NCBI GenBank assembly: GCA_036012755.1
Contig: DASCPX010000127.1
Coordinates: 78,373 to 142,372, forward strand
Source of the DNA: Myxococcota bacterium
Lineage (GTDB): Bacteria > Myxococcota_A > UBA796 > CAJQPC01
Length of the DNA: 64,000 bases
Reading direction: 5' to 3'
The notes below the pieces were generated by a model. It had not been told where the DNA came from. It saw only the letters and a list, made by a program, of their open reading frames with translations, and did not search any database. A program made the position numbers and the translations under genes. Positions 19,543-34,000 of the stretch are shown piece after piece (positions within the stretch are counted from its first letter, which is position 1; the number at the start of each line of letters is the position of its first letter).

Positions 19543-20582
19543 AGATCGTTGATGATGTAGTCGATGTAGGGCAGCCCGTCGTCGCGCTTGGCCTGGGCCG
19601 TGTAGCGGAAGCTCGAGAAGACGACCCGGCCCTTGCCGTCGCTGAAGCTCACCAGCATCGGCGAGGCGGCGATCGTGTAGTCGTCGAAGCCGTCGCGCCA
19701 GGTCGCGTCACCCGTCAGGTGGATCGTGGCGTCGGCGCCCACGGACTCGACGACCGGCCACTCGATGAGGTCATAGACGACGACCACGTCGGCCCCCACG
19801 GCCTCGCCCATGTCCTTGTCCGTGACGTGGGCCGTGACGCCTCCGGTCTCACCACGCTGAGCTTCGTCCGGGACGAGGTCGTCTCCCAGGAACTCTATGC
19901 GGTCCGGCCAGAGCCCCTCGACCACGTCATAGCTCCAGTCGGTGGCGTAGAGCGTGCCGCCTTGCTGGACGTAGGTGAGCAGGTTGGCCTGGACCTGGGC
20001 GATGGTCGCCGCGTCGCCGTCGCCGTCGGTGTCGTAGAAGACGTCCTCTTCGATGTGGCCGCCGTCGAGGAAGACCTTCTCGTACTCCAGCAGGGAGTCG
20101 ATGTTGCCGAGGAACTCGACGAGCTCGTCGCCGGTCTGGCCATTGACGACGTCGTAGGCCGGGATGCCGACCGCCGGGAGGACCTTGTCGAAGTCGTCGT
20201 AGTCACCGGTGATGACCACCACTTCGCCGCCACCGCCGCCGCAGCTCGGCGTGTCGAGCTCCACGCCGCCGGCCTCGGGCAGCTTGATCTCGAACTGGTC
20301 GATCATCTCGCTTCCGAACTGGACGTAGATCATGTAGGCGCGGTCCACCGGCAGCCCCGTGAGCGCGAACAGCCCGGTCTCGTCGGTGATCGACTGCACC
20401 GTGTCGTAGAGCACGTTGTCGCCGTCGAAGAGGTGGGTGTAGACCGTCGCCCCCTCGAGCCAGGTGTCGGTGTAGGGGCTGCAGATGCGGCCCGAGATGG
20501 TCGTGTCGTCGCCCGCGCTGACATCCTCGATGTTGTGGAGGGTGTTGTCGGGAGCGCAAGCGAGCAGGATGAGGTTGAGCAT
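19539..20582 (-). CDS. Hypothetical lipoprotein (carboxypeptidase-regulatory-like domain + GATase-like domain)
   Basis: MLNLILLAC lipobox, TDETGLFAL, YVQQGGTLYATDWSY and GKGRVVFSSF. TGATG coupling to the upstream adhesin gene. Confidence 0.7.
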   Translation of the reverse strand: MLNLILLACAPDNTLHNIEDVSAGDDTTISGRICSPYTDTWLEGATVYTHLFDGDNVLYDTVQSITDETGLFALTGLPVDRAYMIYVQFGSEMIDQFEIKLPEAGGVELDTPSCGGGGGEVVVITGDYDDFDKVLPAVGIPAYDVVNGQTGDELVEFLGNIDSLLEYEKVFLDGGHIEEDVFYDTDGDGDAATIAQVQANLLTYVQQGGTLYATDWSYDVVEGLWPDRIEFLGDDLVPDEAQRGETGGVTAHVTDKDMGEAVGADVVVVYDLIEWPVVESVGADATIHLTGDATWRDGFDDYTIAASPMLVSFSDGKGRVVFSSFRYTAQAKRDDGLPYIDYIINDL

Positions 20583-22588
20583 CAGTAGCTGCTCCCGGGG
20601 ACGAGGACGTAGATGTCCATGGTGTCGAGCAGGACGCTGTCGTCTCCGACGACGTTGAGCGTGAGCTGGAAGACCTGGTCCTCGTCGGTGGCCGCGACGG
20701 CGCCGCGGAACTCGAGCTGGAAGTCGATCTCCTGGCCCGTGACGGCCCCGGAGAGCTCGTATGACTCCGGCTGGATGTCGGTCACGAAGCCGTAGGGGTC
20801 GTTCTCGACCTGCAGGCTGACCGTGGAGAAGCGCACATCGCTGACAAGGTCCTCGATGGCGTCTGTGATGGTCTTCCGCAGCGTCGAGGAGCCGCCGCTC
20901 CAGCTGTAGACCAGCGGCGTGCCGCCGATCTTGGAGCCCGTGGCGTTGGCCAGGGTCTTCATCTGGGCCGAGGGCAGCGAGCTGTAGGTGTGGATGCCGA
21001 TGAGGTAGGCGCCGATGTCGCCGGCGGCGGCGATCACGTCGCTGGAGCCTGCGTCGAGGGGGCAGCCTCCCGGCGTGCCGTTGTAGCTGTTGTTGCTGCT
21101 GTCCGGGTCCCGCAGGTAGTTGTCGGTCGCGTAGACGATGATCGGCATCGAGTACTCGCGGAAGCCGTAGCCGCCGATGTCACCGCCACCGCTGGTGCTG
21201 CCGGACTGGGCGCCGGACTCGCTGCCTCCGAAGGCGTCGCTGGAGTCCTGGATGAAGCTGCGCACGTCGGTGCTGCTGTCGTAGCGCCCGTTGCAGTTCT
21301 GGTCGTAGCCGACGCCGGTCAGGCCCTGGTAGAGCGCCTCCATGCCGGACTCGGGTCCGTCGACCCCGTAGTGCGTGGGGATGGTGTTCATCTTGCCCTG
21401 GAGCGTGCTCACGTCGCTGGTGATCTGCTGGAGCAGGATGAAGGGCTTGTCCCCGGAGGAGGGGGACCCGTAGCTGCCGTAGGCATAGTCGTCGTAGGTG
21501 GCCAGCCCGTACTCGGCCTCTGGGATCGTCGTGGAGAGCGTGCTGACGATCTGGCTGAACTCGCTGCCCATCGCGTTGATCGTCGAGCCCATCGACCCCG
21601 TCGTGTCGATGAGGAAGGCGATGTCCCCCATCTGGATGTTCAGCACGAAGGCGAAGTCCTCTTCGACGGTCGCGCGCTCTTCGACCTCGACGTAGACCCC
21701 CTCGATGATGCTGTCGCTGTCGTTCGGATCGGAGCCGGCGCTGACCTCTGCCCCGTCGGCGTAGCCGTCGCCGTCCGTGTCGTCGTTCCAGGGGTCGGTG
21801 CCGGTCACGTAGATCTCGTCGAAGTCCGAGATCCCGTCGCCGTCGTCGTCCGTGTCGGCGAAGTCGTAGATGCCGTCGCCGTCCGTGTCCTTCGGCTCCT
21901 CTGTCGGGCCGCCGGTGCCACCCTCGATCGAGTCCGGCACCCCGTTTCCGTCACTGTCCTCGTCGAGGTAGTCGGGCACGCCGTCGCCGTCGGAGTCGTT
22001 GGGCTCGTCCTCCCACTGGTTGACGCCACCCTCCCAGATGTCGCCGATGCCGTCCCCGTCGCTGTCGTTGTCGTGGTAGTCGGGGGTCCCGTCGCCGTCG
22101 GTGTCCGGGGCGCCGCAGTCCTCGCCGATCTCGATGGAGTCCTTGATGCCGTCGCCGTCGTCGTCGAGGTCCGCGAAGTTGAGGATGCCGTCGCCGTCGG
22201 GGTCCTCTCCCCCCTCCTCGGCGTCAGGAATGCAGTTGTTGTCGCTGTCGCGGTCGCGGAAGTCGGGCGTGCCGTCGGCGTCGGAGTCCCAGGGCAGCGT
22301 GAGCACGTCGGTGTCGCCTGCCTCGAGCGAGTCGTCGACGCCGTCGTCGTCTGAGTCGGTGTCGAGGTGATCAGGGGTGCCGTCGCCGTCGGTGTCTTCT
22401 TCGAGGACGATCTCGTCGCCGTCCTCGTCGATCTCCCCCGTGTTCTCCCAGCCCTCGTGCATGTCGAGGATCGAGTCGTCGTCGCTGTCGACGTAGGAGA
22501 CTGGAGGTCCTTCACCCGAGTCATCGCTGGCGGTGTCGCCATTGCAGCCAGCGAGCGCGAGTAGGACCACGACAGAGCGCAAGATCAT
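20582..22588 (-). CDS. CglD-like lipoprotein: thrombospondin type-3 Ca-binding repeats + integrin-beta-like vWA domain
   Basis: LAGC lipobox, many DxDGDGxPD repeats, then [12 protein letters not shown] (MIDAS), [12 protein letters not shown] and IVYATD. Confidence 0.8.
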
Positions 22589-22662
22589 GACAGCTCCTGG
22601 TGGTGCCCGGGCGGCGCGTAGGGTAGCCGCGTCCGAGGCCCTCCACAATCAGAGTTTGCGAC

Positions 22663-28896: not shown

Positions 28897-29889
28897 ATGC
28901 TGCCTGCGATCCCTTACTGCGATCTCCACATCCACGTCGGCGCGAGCGTCGCCCCCCACGTCATGTGGTCCATCGCCCACCAGCAAGGCTTCAAGCTCCC
29001 CGTCAACAACTACTGGGAGTTCGTCGACCTGATCACGGCCAACCCGCGCAAGGTCAAGAGCCTCGATGACTACCTGAAGATCCTCCATGAGTGGACGGAG
29101 AAGATCCAGTCTTCGCCGCTGGCGCTCGAGCGCGCCATCTACGAGATCATCGGCAAGGAGTACCGCGGCTCACGGGTCGAGAAGATCGAGCTCCGCTTCA
29201 ACCCGATGAAGCGCAACCTGGAAGGCCAGCGGGACCTCGACCACATCATCCACGCGGCCTTGCGCGGCATGGATCGCGCCTCCTTGGAGTACGGCGTCGA
29301 GGCTGGGCTCATCTTCTGCCTCGCGCGCGAGTTCCCGCCAGAGCAGAACGAGGTCATCCTCGACAAGGCCATCAAGTACCAGGCGCGCGGCGTCGTGGGC
29401 ATCGACCTCGCCGGCACGGAGACCCACACGATCGAGCTGTCGGAGGCCGTCGGGAAGTACGCCGCCATCTTCCAGCGGGCCCGGGAGGCCGACCTCGGCA
29501 CCACCGTCCACACGGGAGAGACGATCTCGACCTCGGGCGAGGGCGTCATCGCGGTGCTGAAGCACCTCAAGCCGAACCGCATCGGCCACGGCGTGCGGGC
29601 CGCCTACAACGAGGACGCCACGAAGATGCTCGCTGACACGGGCTGCGTGCTCGAGATCTGCCCGACCTCGAACCTGAACACCCGCGCCATTCGCCACCTC
29701 GAGGAGTTCAAGTACATCATCGGCACCTTCCAGGACGCCGGCGTGCTGTTCACCATCAACACCGACGGCACCTACCTCTGCGAGACGAACATCCAGCGCG
29801 AGTTCGCGCTGATGACGGACAGCGGCGTCTTCGACGTGGCCGCCAGCGAGCGTGCCCGGATGCTCGCGTTCGAGGCGAGCTTCATCTGA
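28897..29889 (+). CDS. Adenosine deaminase-family amidohydrolase
   Basis: DLHIH, ELRFNP, GIDLAG, HTGE, RIGHG, EICPTSN and INTDG motifs. Confidence 0.88.
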   Translation: MLPAIPYCDLHIHVGASVAPHVMWSIAHQQGFKLPVNNYWEFVDLITANPRKVKSLDDYLKILHEWTEKIQSSPLALERAIYEIIGKEYRGSRVEKIELRFNPMKRNLEGQRDLDHIIHAALRGMDRASLEYGVEAGLIFCLAREFPPEQNEVILDKAIKYQARGVVGIDLAGTETHTIELSEAVGKYAAIFQRAREADLGTTVHTGETISTSGEGVIAVLKHLKPNRIGHGVRAAYNEDATKMLADTGCVLEICPTSNLNTRAIRHLEEFKYIIGTFQDAGVLFTINTDGTYLCETNIQREFALMTDSGVFDVAASERARMLAFEASFI

Positions 29890-30329
29890 TCCTCCTCGGC
29901 GCCGCGCTGGCAGCGACGGCCGAGGTCAGCCAGGAGCGCGTGATCTCCGCGCCATTGGAGGAGGTCCGCGCCTTTCTGCTGGACCCGGAGGAGGCAGCCT
30001 CGCTGACCCCGGACGTAGAGAGCGTGGAGGTGCTCACCAGCGACACCTGCGATCTGGTCCGCACCACGAACAAGGGGCTGCTCTCCAGCGTCGAGTACGT
30101 GGTGAAGCGCTGCTATGCCGACGACGGCGTACAGGAGACGCTGGTCGAGAGCGAGGACTTCACGGCCTACGAGGCCAGCTACACCCTCACGGCGGTCGAC
30201 GGCGGCACCAAGGTCGTCTACGACGTGACTGTCGGTGTCGACATGCCAGTGCCCGACTGGGCGATCCGCATGGGAGTCGAGCGCTCGACCGCGGCCACGA
30301 TGGAGGCCCTGGCGGCGCACTTCGATTAG
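29886..30329 (+). CDS. SRPBCC/START-fold ligand-binding protein; start CTG 29886 or GTG 29940
   Basis: ISAPLEEVRAFL...PDVESVEVL...DGGTKVVY pattern. The in-frame upstream ILLGAALA looks like a signal peptide. Confidence 0.75.
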   Translation: MILLGAALAATAEVSQERVISAPLEEVRAFLLDPEEAASLTPDVESVEVLTSDTCDLVRTTNKGLLSSVEYVVKRCYADDGVQETLVESEDFTAYEASYTLTAVDGGTKVVYDVTVGVDMPVPDWAIRMGVERSTAATMEALAAHFD

Positions 30330-30337
30330 GCCCCCCC

Positions 30338-33300
30338 ATGGCACGCCTTGCTTGTGGACTGGATCTTGGAGGGAGCGGCGTCCGCTGCCTCGTCGTCGAC
30401 CTCGAGACCGGACGACGCTGGAGCGCGCGACGCCCGCTGAGACTCGTCCCGGCGGGGCCCTGGTCCTGGGATCTGGACCTGGAGGCGACCTGGAGCGCTG
30501 CGCTGGCTGTCCTGCGCGGGGCCCTGGAGGCAGCGGGCAGCGGCGAGGTCGTCGGCATCTCGTCCTCTTGCATGCGCCAGGCGATGGTGGTCCTGGGCTC
30601 CGAAGTGGTGCTCCTGGCGACCCCGAACATCGACGCGCGGGGAGCCGGCCAGGCCGAGCAGCTGGCGGAGACCGGCGAGAATCGCCTGCGTCGCACGGGT
30701 CGCTGGCCGGACCCTGCCTCCGCCGCCGCCCGCCTGGTCTGGCTCCGTGACGAGGGCCGCATCGGCCTGGCGCGTCACTTCCTGTCCCTCGGTGACTGGC
30801 TCTCCTGGAAGCTCTGCGGGGCGCTGGCCGCCGAGCGCTCCCAGGCCGGAGAGTCGGGGCTGCTCACCCTCACCGGACGCTGGGACCGAAACGCCATCGA
30901 GCAGCTCGAGCTGCCAGTGGACATCTTCCCCGAGCTCGTCCAGGCCGGCGCCGAGCTCGGTGGCCTGAGCGCCGAGGCGGCCTCGCTCGTCGGGCTCCCG
31001 GCCGGAACACCCGTCCACGCAGGAGGTGGTGACACCCCCTGCGCCCTGCTCGGAGCCGGGGTCGCCCAGCCCGGGCAGGCCGGCATCGTCGCCGGGACCA
31101 CCTGCCCGATCCAGCACGTGGTCGGCGTACCGAAGCCCGAACGACAGCTGCGCCTCGGCCACCACGTCGTCGCCGGACGCTGGCTGCTCGAGAAGAACCA
31201 GGTGCTCGCGGGGCAGGTGCTCGGGCAGCTCGCCGCAGCCTTCTTCGAGGACCACCCGGCCCCGGTCGCTCGACTAATGGAGGTCGCCAAGGACGGGCGG
31301 TCCGCCGCGGTCGCCTCCATGGGCGCGACCCCCTTCCGCGCGGACCAGCTGAGCCTGCCCGTGATGGGACTGCACCTCTCTCCGTTCCAGACCAGCGACG
31401 CCCGGGCGGACCTCGCCCGCGCGGCCGTCGACGCCGTCTGTCGTGGCATCGCGCAGAACATCCCGGGGGAGCCCGAACAGCTGCGGGTCACCGGGGGGCT
31501 CTCACAGAGCCGCTGGTTCGTCGAGCAGCTCGCCGGACACCTGGGCACGCCCGTGCTCAGGACACTCCGACCCGAGTCCTCGGCCCTGGGCGCCGCGATG
31601 CTCGCGTGTCCGGACGGGGTGGCGGCCTGCGAACACCTCGTCGAGCTGGAGAGCGTGTCTCCCGCCTCTGTGCGCGAGCCCTCCCCGACTCTCCTGAGGG
31701 CCTTCGCAGACCTGGAGCCAGAGGTCGCCGGGGAGCTGGTCAGTGCCTCCTTCGACGACCAGCCGCAGGACATTCCCCACCTGCCAGAGGCGCTGCGCAT
31801 CTACGTGTCCGCGTCAGTCGACGAGGACAGCCTCGCCCGACTGCGCAGCCTGGGAGAGGTGGTCTATGCCCCCTACCGCGAGGTCCAGACCCTGCTGACC
31901 GGAGAGGCGCTCGTCGAGGCGCTGCAGGGGGTCCACGTGTTCGTGACCGAGGTCGACGTGGTCGACCTGGAGGCCCTGGAGGAGCTCCCGCAGCTCCGCG
32001 TCATCGCATGCTGCCGCGGTCGCGTCGTGAACGTCGACGTTGCCTCGTGCACCGCCCTCGGCATCCCGGTCCTGGGTGCGCCTGGGAGAAACGCAGAGGC
32101 TGTCGCAGACTTCACCGTCGCTGCCTCGTTGGCGCTGCTGCGCAAGCTCGTCCCCGCGGATCGCTTCCTTCGAAGCGGTGTCGAGGCCGGCGACATGGGA
32201 CGCATGGGCATGGCGCACGAGGCCTTCCAGGGCTTCGAGCTGGGGGGGCGCACGGTGGGCCTGATCGGCTTCGGAGCCGTGGCGCGCGCGGTCGCCAGGC
32301 GGCTGAGGTCCTTCGGCTCGCGGGTGATCGCTTTCGATCCCTTCGTCCCTGACCAGGTGATCTGGGCAGGAGGTGCGGAGCCCGTCTCGCTGGAGGCGCT
32401 CCTTCAGCGGTCGGATGTCGTGTCCCTCCACGCCGCCGCCACGGACGAGACCCGCGGGATCATCGGCCGCCAGGCCCTCTCGGCGATGAAGGAGAGCGCC
32501 CTCTTGATCAACACCGCCCGCGCGGCCCTCGTCGACCAGGACGCCCTCGTCGATGCCCTGCGCTCCGGTGGGATCGCGGGGGCATGCCTCGATGTGTTCG
32601 CGGTAGAGCCGCCAGGCTCCGACGAGCCCCTGCTGCAGCTCGACAACGTGCTCGCGCTGCCCCACATCGCCGGCAACACCCACGACGTCGGGCGCCACCA
32701 GGGCCGCATCGTCGTCGAGGGGCTCGAGGCGCTGCTTCGCGGGGAGCGCCCGCGGACCCTGCTCAACGACGTCCTCGAGGGCTTCTCCTGGGATCAGAGG
32801 CCAGAAGCGGACGCAGAGGAGCTGGAAGCGCTGCGGGCCGGGCCCGGACCCGGGGTCACCGACCTCGAGATCGCCGCGACAGCGAGCCTGCCCGAGATCT
32901 CGATGCCGACCCCGGAGCTCATGACGGAGCCCGCGCCAGAGTCCGGCTTCGCGGCCCTGGTGGCTGCCTTCTGCGGCCTCGCAGAGTCCGACCCGGACAT
33001 CCAGGCCTTCGCGACTGGCCGGGACATCACGGCGCAGTACCTCGCCCCCGACGCCGACGTCGGCTTCCACATGGTCTTCCGTGACGGCCGGGCGGTGGTG
33101 CGGCCGGCCCCCTACGCCGGCAAGCCGGACGTGACGGTGAAGATGAACGCAGAGGTCATGGACGGCGTCTTCGGCGGCGAGGTCAACGGCATGAAGGCGG
33201 CCATGACCGGGAAGCTCTCGTTCATGGGCAACACCGTCAAGGCGATGACGATGCAGCGGGTGCAGCCACAGATGACCAGGCAGTGGCTGGCTGCGCGCGA

Positions 33301-34000
33301 GCGCGTGGGCGAGCTCGACTTCTCGCGCCCCGAACCCACCAGGTCCCAGATAAGTCCGATCGAAGGCGACGACGGCATCCTGAGAGGTGCCCTCGCGGCG
33401 GGCGTCGGCGAGCTGGTGGAGGCCGGGCTGATCACCTCCACCGGCGGCAACGTGAGCATCCGGGTCGGACCCGAACGAGCGCTGCTCACTCCGAGCCAGC
33501 TCTTCAAGGGCGACCTGCGGCCAGAGCTGATGGTGCTGGTCGACCTCGACGGGGAGCCCCTGCAGCAGGTGGGCGCAGCGCCGACGAGCGAGCGCATGAT
33601 CCACTGCTCGATCCTGAAGGCGAGGCCGGACGTCGGAGCGGTCGTCCACAGCCACGCGCCGATGGCCACGACGCTGGACCTCGCCGGCCTGCCCTTCCTG
33701 CCGATCTCGACCGAGGCAGCCTTCGTCGGAGAGATCCCACGGGTCTGTTTCACGATGCCCGGCACCGACGAGCTCGCAGGGGCGATCGTCCAGGCCCTCG
33801 GCAGCGGCAGCGCCGTGATCATGAGCAACCACGGCCTCGTCGTCGCGGGCAGCTCGCTTCGGCGCGCCCTGGACCTGACTCACATCATCGAGGACACGGC
33901 GGCGAAGCTCATCGACTGCCAGAAGATGGGCAGGGTCCCTCCGGTGTTGCCCCCCGAGACCGTCGAGATGCTTCAGTCGATCGGCGAACTCATCGCCTGA
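30338..34000 (+). CDS. 1220-aa fusion: FGGY kinase + D-2-hydroxyacid dehydrogenase + SCP2 + class II aldolase
   Basis: Kinase: GLDLGGSG, PNIDARG, GGGDT, VTGG, ALGAA. Dehydrogenase: PGRNAEAVA, GFGAVA, NTARA, DVFAVEP, PHIAG. SCP2: AAMTGKLSFMGN. Aldolase: GNVSIR, TSERMIH, HSH, NHG. Confidence 0.88.
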   Translation: MARLACGLDLGGSGVRCLVVDLETGRRWSARRPLRLVPAGPWSWDLDLEATWSAALAVLRGALEAAGSGEVVGISSSCMRQAMVVLGSEVVLLATPNIDARGAGQAEQLAETGENRLRRTGRWPDPASAAARLVWLRDEGRIGLARHFLSLGDWLSWKLCGALAAERSQAGESGLLTLTGRWDRNAIEQLELPVDIFPELVQAGAELGGLSAEAASLVGLPAGTPVHAGGGDTPCALLGAGVAQPGQAGIVAGTTCPIQHVVGVPKPERQLRLGHHVVAGRWLLEKNQVLAGQVLGQLAAAFFEDHPAPVARLMEVAKDGRSAAVASMGATPFRADQLSLPVMGLHLSPFQTSDARADLARAAVDAVCRGIAQNIPGEPEQLRVTGGLSQSRWFVEQLAGHLGTPVLRTLRPESSALGAAMLACPDGVAACEHLVELESVSPASVREPSPTLLRAFADLEPEVAGELVSASFDDQPQDIPHLPEALRIYVSASVDEDSLARLRSLGEVVYAPYREVQTLLTGEALVEALQGVHVFVTEVDVVDLEALEELPQLRVIACCRGRVVNVDVASCTALGIPVLGAPGRNAEAVADFTVAASLALLRKLVPADRFLRSGVEAGDMGRMGMAHEAFQGFELGGRTVGLIGFGAVARAVARRLRSFGSRVIAFDPFVPDQVIWAGGAEPVSLEALLQRSDVVSLHAAATDETRGIIGRQALSAMKESALLINTARAALVDQDALVDALRSGGIAGACLDVFAVEPPGSDEPLLQLDNVLALPHIAGNTHDVGRHQGRIVVEGLEALLRGERPRTLLNDVLEGFSWDQRPEADAEELEALRAGPGPGVTDLEIAATASLPEISMPTPELMTEPAPESGFAALVAAFCGLAESDPDIQAFATGRDITAQYLAPDADVGFHMVFRDGRAVVRPAPYAGKPDVTVKMNAEVMDGVFGGEVNGMKAAMTGKLSFMGNTVKAMTMQRVQPQMTRQWLAARERVGELDFSRPEPTRSQISPIEGDDGILRGALAAGVGELVEAGLITSTGGNVSIRVGPERALLTPSQLFKGDLRPELMVLVDLDGEPLQQVGAAPTSERMIHCSILKARPDVGAVVHSHAPMATTLDLAGLPFLPISTEAAFVGEIPRVCFTMPGTDELAGAIVQALGSGSAVIMSNHGLVVAGSSLRRALDLTHIIEDTAAKLIDCQKMGRVPPVLPPETVEMLQSIGELIA

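Follow-up and report, generated by a model that had tools for sequence, protein, structure and literature searches.

The Bacillus subtilis operon that encodes YoaC and YoaD presumably contains neither an aldolase nor an SCP2 gene. Its products pair a kinase with a dehydrogenase; their function is unproven, and the available part of one source suggests cysteine degradation as a guess (PMC2885750). Neither YoaC nor YoaD is named in the main text of PMC3245297 or of PMC6303947, as far as these were accessible. In 5-deoxyribose salvage by DrdK-DrdI-DrdA, known as the dihydroxyacetone phosphate (DHAP) shunt, the class II aldolase DrdA (structure 6BTD) splits 5-deoxyribulose 1-phosphate into DHAP and acetaldehyde and accepts various aldehydes; a 3R,4R pattern was inferred for its substrate (PMC6079011, accessible part). 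Here, a 64,000-nucleotide stretch from a Myxococcota bacterium (contig DASCPX010000127.1; the window) is described, in which one open reading frame (ORF) encodes a kinase, a dehydrogenase, an SCP2 domain and a class II aldolase. The likeness to the Drd pathway lies in the proposed cleavage of a 5-substituted ribulose 1-phosphate to DHAP and an aldehyde by a class II aldolase. The entry steps differ, with an FGGY kinase and an NAD dehydrogenase in the window and an MtnK-type kinase and an isomerase in the Drd pathway (PMC6079011, same part). The window aldolase is only 28% identical to DrdA, and the window protein adds the SCP2 domain and joins all parts in one polypeptide.

The function tentatively favored here, with a chance close to even, is removal of a three-carbon unit from the side chain of a bacteriohopanepolyol, the order of the kinase and dehydrogenase steps being a proposal. 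This reading is drawn from the partner genes (HpnA, HpnO-like and shc-cluster sites) that adjoin some relatives of the fusion. As major lipids of bacterial membranes, hopanoids are in wide use as biomarkers. Bacteriohopanetetrol (BHT; 5-hopanyl-5-deoxy-ribitol) is a ribitol with hopane at C5 and arises by a route via adenosylhopane and ribosylhopane. HpnO forms aminotriol from ribosylhopane and thereby links the two, while the enzyme that converts ribosylhopane to BHT is not established; N-tryptophanyl, N-ornithinyl and N-phenylalanyl aminotriols occur, and hpnA is missing from alphaproteobacterial genomes without hpnH (PMC12583986, sections available). Environmental hopanoic acids have been ascribed to oxidative cleavage of the vicinal diols of bacteriohopanoids (PMC4339782, available portion). 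Neither genes for that cleavage step nor a description of the fusion architecture or of hopanoid side-chain catabolism genes was found in the open-access literature, with supplements and most subscription journals outside its scope.

The four-domain ORF

An earlier note on this DNA described an uninterrupted 1220-aa ORF with motifs for three enzymes and an SCP2 domain, and translation, Pfam and motif positions bear this out. Pfam matches above cut-off are FGGY_N (residues 5-239), FGGY_C (250-424), 2-Hacid_dh (493-806), 2-Hacid_dh_C (595-778), SCP2 (909-975) and Aldolase_II (1020-1189). The motifs PNIDARG, RG..VNVD and PGRNAEAVA are found at residues 96-102, 560-567 and 582-590, respectively. 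The features are collected in Table 1.

Table 1. Fusion gene, its domains and the gene directly upstream (positions within the window).
Feature	Position	Strand	Description or basis
Four-domain ORF	30338..34000	+	1220 aa, translation stop-free; Pfam and homologue conservation
Kinase domain, FGGY, LsrK branch (aa 1-440)	30338..31657	+	Pfam, kept catalytic residues, model
D-2-hydroxyacid-dehydrogenase-fold domain (aa 484-845)	31787..32872	+	Pfam, alignment
SCP2 lipid-carrier domain (aa 868-990)	32939..33307	+	Pfam, fold comparison
Class II aldolase domain (aa 1010-1220)	33365..33997	+	Alignment, fold comparison
SRPBCC/START-fold gene	29886..30329 (29940-30329 without leader)	+	8 nt upstream of fusion; pathway membership doubtful

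A search of the protein collection gave 376 proteins at E ≤1e-10 from 7998 candidates scored. The order kinase, dehydrogenase, SCP2, aldolase is present in 121 of 121 sequences (the query and the 120 best-listed homologues, one of which is the window's own record). Because the four-part order is shared, the ORF is a genuine fusion gene and not an assembly artefact, and an origin by frameshift or chimera was rejected. Mean identity, over the 118 rows that are neither self nor orthologue, is 39% for the kinase, 61% for the dehydrogenase, 40% for SCP2 and 55% for the aldolase. An in-frame GTG at 29852 would give an alternative product of 1382 aa; the Met of 30338 is the start in the five aligned homologue rows inspected. 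The reads are no independent proof: a single contig covers the stretch without gaps and with one different letter, its run is possibly the source of the same DNA, and three further runs matched in short pieces only. The gene shows breaks, which may be sequencing errors, at some genome loci (L023, L025, L037, L044, L053, L064, L069, L070 and L079).

The proposal of a Rosetta-stone pathway fusion is supported by split operons of kinase, dehydrogenase and aldolase, with or without a free SCP2 gene. Such operons are known here from Chloroflexota, Actinomycetota, Bacteroidota and archaea, and several carry the free SCP2 gene. Records that contain the fusion itself bear the titles Anaerolineae, Deltaproteobacteria, Myxococcota, Halioglobus, Spirochaetales, Binatia and Thermoleophilia. 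Among the carriers available in culture are Bellilinea caldifistulae (L030) and a Halioglobus strain. Two tandem SCP2 domains are present in the versions at L129, L155, L156 and L126. At L071:8040-11219, L074, L168, L171 and L175, a HAD phosphatase replaces the aldolase after the dehydrogenase and kinase.

Kinase and dehydrogenase domains

Residue conservation was counted in a 110-sequence alignment. The kinase retains D9, R80, D99, R101 and D232, and its model is a complete FGGY fold with a pLDDT of 92.4; both Pfam domains, the catalytic aspartates and the fold of an FGGY kinase are thus present. LsrK, the autoinducer-2 kinase, is the nearest match by sequence and fold, which agrees with the placement on the LsrK branch in the earlier note. 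It is the top PDB sequence match of the L012 kinase (E 3e-76), the fold comparison gives a TM of 0.79-0.80, and the NxDAR motif is common to both. In contrast, identity is 26%, the score against the NCBIfam LsrK profile NF008187 is 128.4 with a cut-off of 528, and no lsrF/lsrG context was recognised among the annotated neighbors. The window kinase is the most divergent of the aligned family, with 27 of 116 conserved positions altered (median 7 and maximum 18 in the others), including Q234P, G289V, E365D and G366A. It is 78% identical to the kinase of P0003, conserved like the other domains of that protein, while the linkers are 47-55% identical.

The dehydrogenase triad R728/E757/H776 and D667 are invariant, and both the Arg-Glu-His set and a Rossmann motif are present, the final Gly of the latter being Ala649 in the window copy. 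Fold, triad and NAD-type Asp are shared with D-2-hydroxyacid dehydrogenases of the SERA and GHRB types (PMC6303947, accessible part). According to the same part of that source, Gly73 and Gly231 are conserved in more than 90% of these enzymes and the Gly73 amide binds the substrate carboxylate. In the window, the Gly73 position is Arg562, and the four commonest residues there among the 110 sequences are D (46), N (30), R (9) and L (8). The Gly231 position is replaced as well, two additional arginines (R560 and R584) are invariant, and all NCBIfam scores are far under cut-off. Loss of Gly73 together with the invariant R560 and R584 suggests a site remodelled for a phosphorylated, non-acid substrate, namely a polyol phosphate.

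SCP2 and aldolase domains

The SCP2 domain scores 42.7 bits against a Pfam cut-off of 21.3 and matches the human SCP2 fold with Z 12.5 and rmsd 2.1 over 107 aligned residues. A two-domain model of SCP2 and aldolase has a pTM of 0.88. As a check on channelling, this value hints at fixed packing of the two domains and is no demonstration of channelling itself.

Aldolase residues E1085, H1104, H1106 and H1165 are invariant in 110 of 110 sequences and align with the metal and catalytic residues of DrdA and FucA. Sequence and Foldseek comparisons both rank 6BTD first among PDB entries (TM 0.91 on target, rmsd 1.6). Comparison with 4c25 gives Z 27.8 and rmsd 1.8 over 205 aligned residues, and decarboxylases that share this fold reach a tied Z (2z7b, 27.1). 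Since these score equally, retro-aldol cleavage to DHAP, as opposed to decarboxylation, epimerisation or dehydration, is an inferred activity. The domain is not a FucA by score (81 bits, cut-off 264). Where FucA has Phe131, 71 of 71 fused forms carry Pro (Pro1141 in the window), and the DrdA Tyr position is Thr1125 in the window; we take both positions to line the aldehyde pocket.

Neighboring genes

Neighbors were examined at 160 loci, the best 80 from each of two collection scans, some of them short or redundant. Genes were called by a simple script, and cluster representatives and near neighbors were annotated. HpnA adjoins the pathway at eight of these loci, and an aminotransferase with an M28 peptidase at seven. 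The HpnA proteins of L012 (430.7) and L048 (446.4) score above the TIGR03466 cut-off of 367.65. The linked transaminase is 52% identical, over its full length, to the last gene of a Streptomyces hpnCDE-shc-hpnH cluster in the plasmid collection compared, and 38% identical to a Methylocystis enzyme outside such a hopanoid cluster. Database labels were uninformative as to its identity, and the Streptomyces cluster counterpart of the L012 transaminase, considered as HpnO, is annotated without the HpnO name. A block of HpnO-like transaminase, M28 peptidase, HpnA and aldehyde ferredoxin oxidoreductase (AOR) occurs with the fused forms L207 and L208 (AOR not in view) and the split form L201. The dehydrogenase domains nearest to the query among the loci compared (64-67%) come from Chloroflexota-titled and metagenome loci and include those of the HpnO-like/HpnA operons L012, L101, L207 and L208. 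At L202:8564-10932 (G162), a convergent pair of HpnA and an HpnO-like gene lies on a contig distinct from the split operon, and no shc was found in that genome.

The L048 fusion lies between shc-hpnG-hpnB and hpnA-hpnH, and hpnB and hpnA are adjacent in G073. The L028 fusion is 3 kb from shc. Such a location near shc is found in two of ten shc-bearing carriers, with a chance probability of ~7e-4 computed after the fact. Apparent close relatives of HpnO and HpnA from hopanoid clusters flank the fusion in several lineages. The difference is that the side chain is built in those clusters, whereas beside the fusion mostly no shc was found and the direction would be the reverse.

AOR is near the pathway in 20 of the 160 loci and a close aldehyde dehydrogenase (ALDH) in two. 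A CoA ligase at least 47% identical to the L018 enzyme, expected to activate acids, is present in 15; the L018 ligase scores 617.6 with a cut-off of 750 for steroid-24-oyl-CoA synthetase. A P450 is directly upstream in 13, and its nearest solved structures include, by a narrow margin, the CYP142 steroid C26-monooxygenase. A KshA-like Rieske protein is found in 12. The Halioglobus-type cassette (L018, L031, L045, L060, L070) has a KshA-like Rieske gene and an amidohydrolase divergent from the fusion, a VOC protein and a CasG-like ligase, some with a TonB receptor or an RPE65 oxygenase nearby. At L016:3427-7959 and L022:3480-8001, a second, unrelated omega-aminotransferase is fused to SCP2, and genes for an SDR, a P450 and a Zn alcohol dehydrogenase precede the fusion; this set is possibly a convergent amine-to-alcohol funnel. 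Glyoxalase-like neighbors in eight loci suggest ether-lipid cleavage, an idea on which bears the requirement of class II aldolases for a free hydroxyl for metal chelation. SCP2-less trios of aldolase, kinase and dehydrogenase lie beside sugar transporters in plasmid records of Klebsiella (L200:4932-8074) and Streptomyces (L199:5342-8705), as a putative small-polyol pathway, and another is found in L089. The aldolase of the Klebsiella trio is annotated as methylthioribulose-phosphate dehydratase.

Co-occurrence across genomes

Among 50 carrier genomes, taken from 80 genome loci, shc has a match in ten (nine above cut-off) and none in 40. HpnA above cut-off without shc is present in six carriers, in five of them next to the fusion. 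Of the 251 genomes in the class of G062, whose record bears the title Anaerolineae, 23 have a dehydrogenase orthologue, 21 at E ≤7e-90 and two partial (59-65%). An HpnO-like gene is present in nine, of which eight have the dehydrogenase and none has shc. HpnA is present in 20 genomes and shc in seven, with two further partial matches. All seven shc genomes have HpnA, adjacent in six, and nine of the remaining 13 HpnA genomes have the dehydrogenase, which occurs in none of the nine shc genomes. With the seed left out, the dehydrogenase is found in 7/8 genomes with the HpnO-like gene and 15/242 others (Fisher p ~1e-7), and in 8/12 HpnA genomes without shc and 14/231 others (p ~5e-7), kin not being independent in either comparison.

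The window genome holds an unlinked cluster (G000:C16:128157-143242, L252) that encodes an acyl-CoA dehydrogenase, an ALDH, a free SCP2, an SDR-SCP2-MaoC protein, a carboxyltransferase and an SCPx-type thiolase. Its ALDH is the best match of the genome, 42% identical to the L029 enzyme. The cluster is a candidate branched-lipid side-chain oxidation unit and, judged by its gene content, could take the aldehyde product. No ring-attacking enzymes were found in the window genome.

Proposed pathway and alternatives

In the proposed mechanism, SCP2 would hold the hopane rings while the kinase phosphorylates the terminal C35 hydroxyl of BHT. The dehydrogenase would then use NAD+ to oxidise the adjacent C34 hydroxyl. 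The metal aldolase would split the resulting 5-substituted ribulose 1-phosphate between C33 and C32, in the manner of DrdA, into DHAP and a C32 aldehyde (bishomohopanal). The stereochemistry of BHT presumably matches the 3R,4R pattern of DrdA. Neighboring AOR, ALDH and possibly P450 may oxidise the C32 aldehyde to the C32 acid. Where the operons are most complete, the M28 peptidase, a reversed HpnO-like transaminase and HpnA would convert hopanoids of the N-aminoacyl and amino types to the tetrol. The window organism itself would obtain DHAP from hopanoids that it scavenges, without attack on the rings. Such a mechanism would account for all four domains, the three alternative aldehyde-oxidising neighbors and the block of HpnO-like transaminase, M28 peptidase and HpnA. 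The earlier suggestion of a hydrophobic substrate is upheld by the SCP2 fold and the lipid-catabolism neighbors; the partner genes favor a hopanoid polyol over the alkyl- or thio-substituted sugar.

A wider claim, held with somewhat less confidence than an even chance, is that the family is dedicated to side-chain catabolism of bacteriohopanepolyols in Anaerolineae, uncultured delta-proteobacteria and Myxococcota, Halioglobus and, in split form, archaea. Sediments would then owe some of their C32 hopanoic acid to an enzyme, and HpnA would be the missing ribosylhopane/BHT oxidoreductase. The specific product predicted is C32 and not C31 or C33, which would explain part of the shortened sediment hopanoids. 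The fusion would also serve as a marker gene, frequent in certain groups (one class has it in 53 of 151 genomes), and as a handle on the role of HpnA and the step from ribosylhopane to BHT. Should the hopanoid reading be false, a widespread, unstudied pathway for lipid polyols or polyols within one polypeptide would still be left.

Several observations weigh against hopanoid cleavage. Because SCP2-less trios adjoin sugar transporters, the chemistry of the trio is general. Small residues in the aldehyde pocket were rejected as a lipid signature, since SCP2-less relatives likewise lack the Phe and Tyr. The threshold behind the 23 Anaerolineae orthologues was chosen after the score gap was seen, HpnA and the HpnO-like gene are both absent in 14 of the 22 non-seed carriers of that class, and a single inherited event may underlie the link to HpnA and the HpnO-like gene. 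Among the 151 genomes in the class of G063 (dehydrogenase in 53), shc shows no enrichment (12/53 carriers and 26/98 others, by hand count), and the P450 that neighbors the pathway is present in 23/53 carriers, yet also in 25/98 non-carriers. The window genome (95.95% complete) gave no shc, hpnCDEGH or P450 matches; its best HpnO-like match is 35%, its HpnA matches are below cut-off only, and the fusion gene stands alone. HpnA is itself without an established function (PMC12583986, same sections).

The same chemistry could act on another lipid-bound polyol, such as a phytosphingosine-derived one or a long-chain 1,2,3,4-tetrol head group, releasing DHAP and a fatty aldehyde for beta-oxidation. 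We regard this as unlikely. SCP2 is not restricted to hopanoids, the frequent neighbors include acyl-CoA ligases, dehydrogenases and thiolases of generic type, the stereochemistry of D-ribo-phytosphingosine fits, and the window genome combines the unlinked ALDH-SCP2-SDR/MaoC-thiolase cluster with the lack of ring-attacking enzymes noted above. Yet a sphingoid base would gain its 2-oxo group by transamination, which would leave the always-present dehydrogenase without a role; the linked transaminase is nearest to the hopanoid-cluster enzyme, and the shc-cluster locations are left unexplained. Breakdown of a polyol or ketose that is small and soluble is unlikely as well. Its substrates would be AI-2/DPD, 5-deoxy- or 5-methylthio-pentitol, or a tetritol split into DHAP and formaldehyde, SCP2 would serve as a membrane or scaffold module, and this reading is the nearest to the YoaC/YoaD idea of the earlier note. 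LsrK as the nearest kinase, DrdA as the nearest aldolase, an LsrR/DeoR-type regulator upstream in four of the 160 loci and the transporter-linked trios of L089, Streptomyces and Klebsiella all fit it. Against it stand the LsrK score far below cut-off, the retention of SCP2 as a separate gene within split operons of Chloroflexota and archaea, and the dominance of lipid- or hopanoid-type partners around the SCP2 forms. The adenosine deaminase upstream is incidental, being conserved in four fusion-less relatives, and a link to nucleoside salvage was rejected for the same reason.

It is improbable that the window copy is an orphan gained by transfer, its kinase altered or idle, or that the family is synthetic or remodelling in hopanoid producers. 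The altered kinase positions, the lack of partner genes in the window genome, the failure to find the gene in other genomes of the order (below) and the site of L048 inside a biosynthetic cluster argue for it. The identity to the P0003 kinase, the kept catalytic aspartates and the full FGGY fold model argue against an idle enzyme, and a biosynthetic role was rejected because 40 of 50 carriers have no shc match.

Distribution and surroundings of the window copy

A search of 153 other genomes from the same order found no dehydrogenase orthologue. In the same-genus genome G002, the deaminase and the downstream gene flank another gene, and in the window the SRPBCC gene and the fusion together occupy this variable chromosomal slot. 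This distribution, with the closest dehydrogenase domains in Chloroflexota-titled and metagenome loci, suggests that the window fusion was acquired by transfer.

The SRPBCC frame reaches upstream to a CTG at 29886 and overlaps the deaminase stop (29886-29939). The extension adds a short, uncharged hydrophobic leader, which is a possible signal peptide. SRPBCC genes head the split operons L054, L149, L150, L203, L204, L214 and L215. The profile of these genes misses the window gene at E 10 and matches another contig instead, so that its part in the pathway is doubtful and the argument for a hydrophobic substrate drawn from it is weak.

Elsewhere in the window, positions 20582-22648 encode an exported-type protein which, by eye, has numerous repeats that are Asp-rich and calcium-binding-like, followed at the C-terminal end by a vWA-like part.

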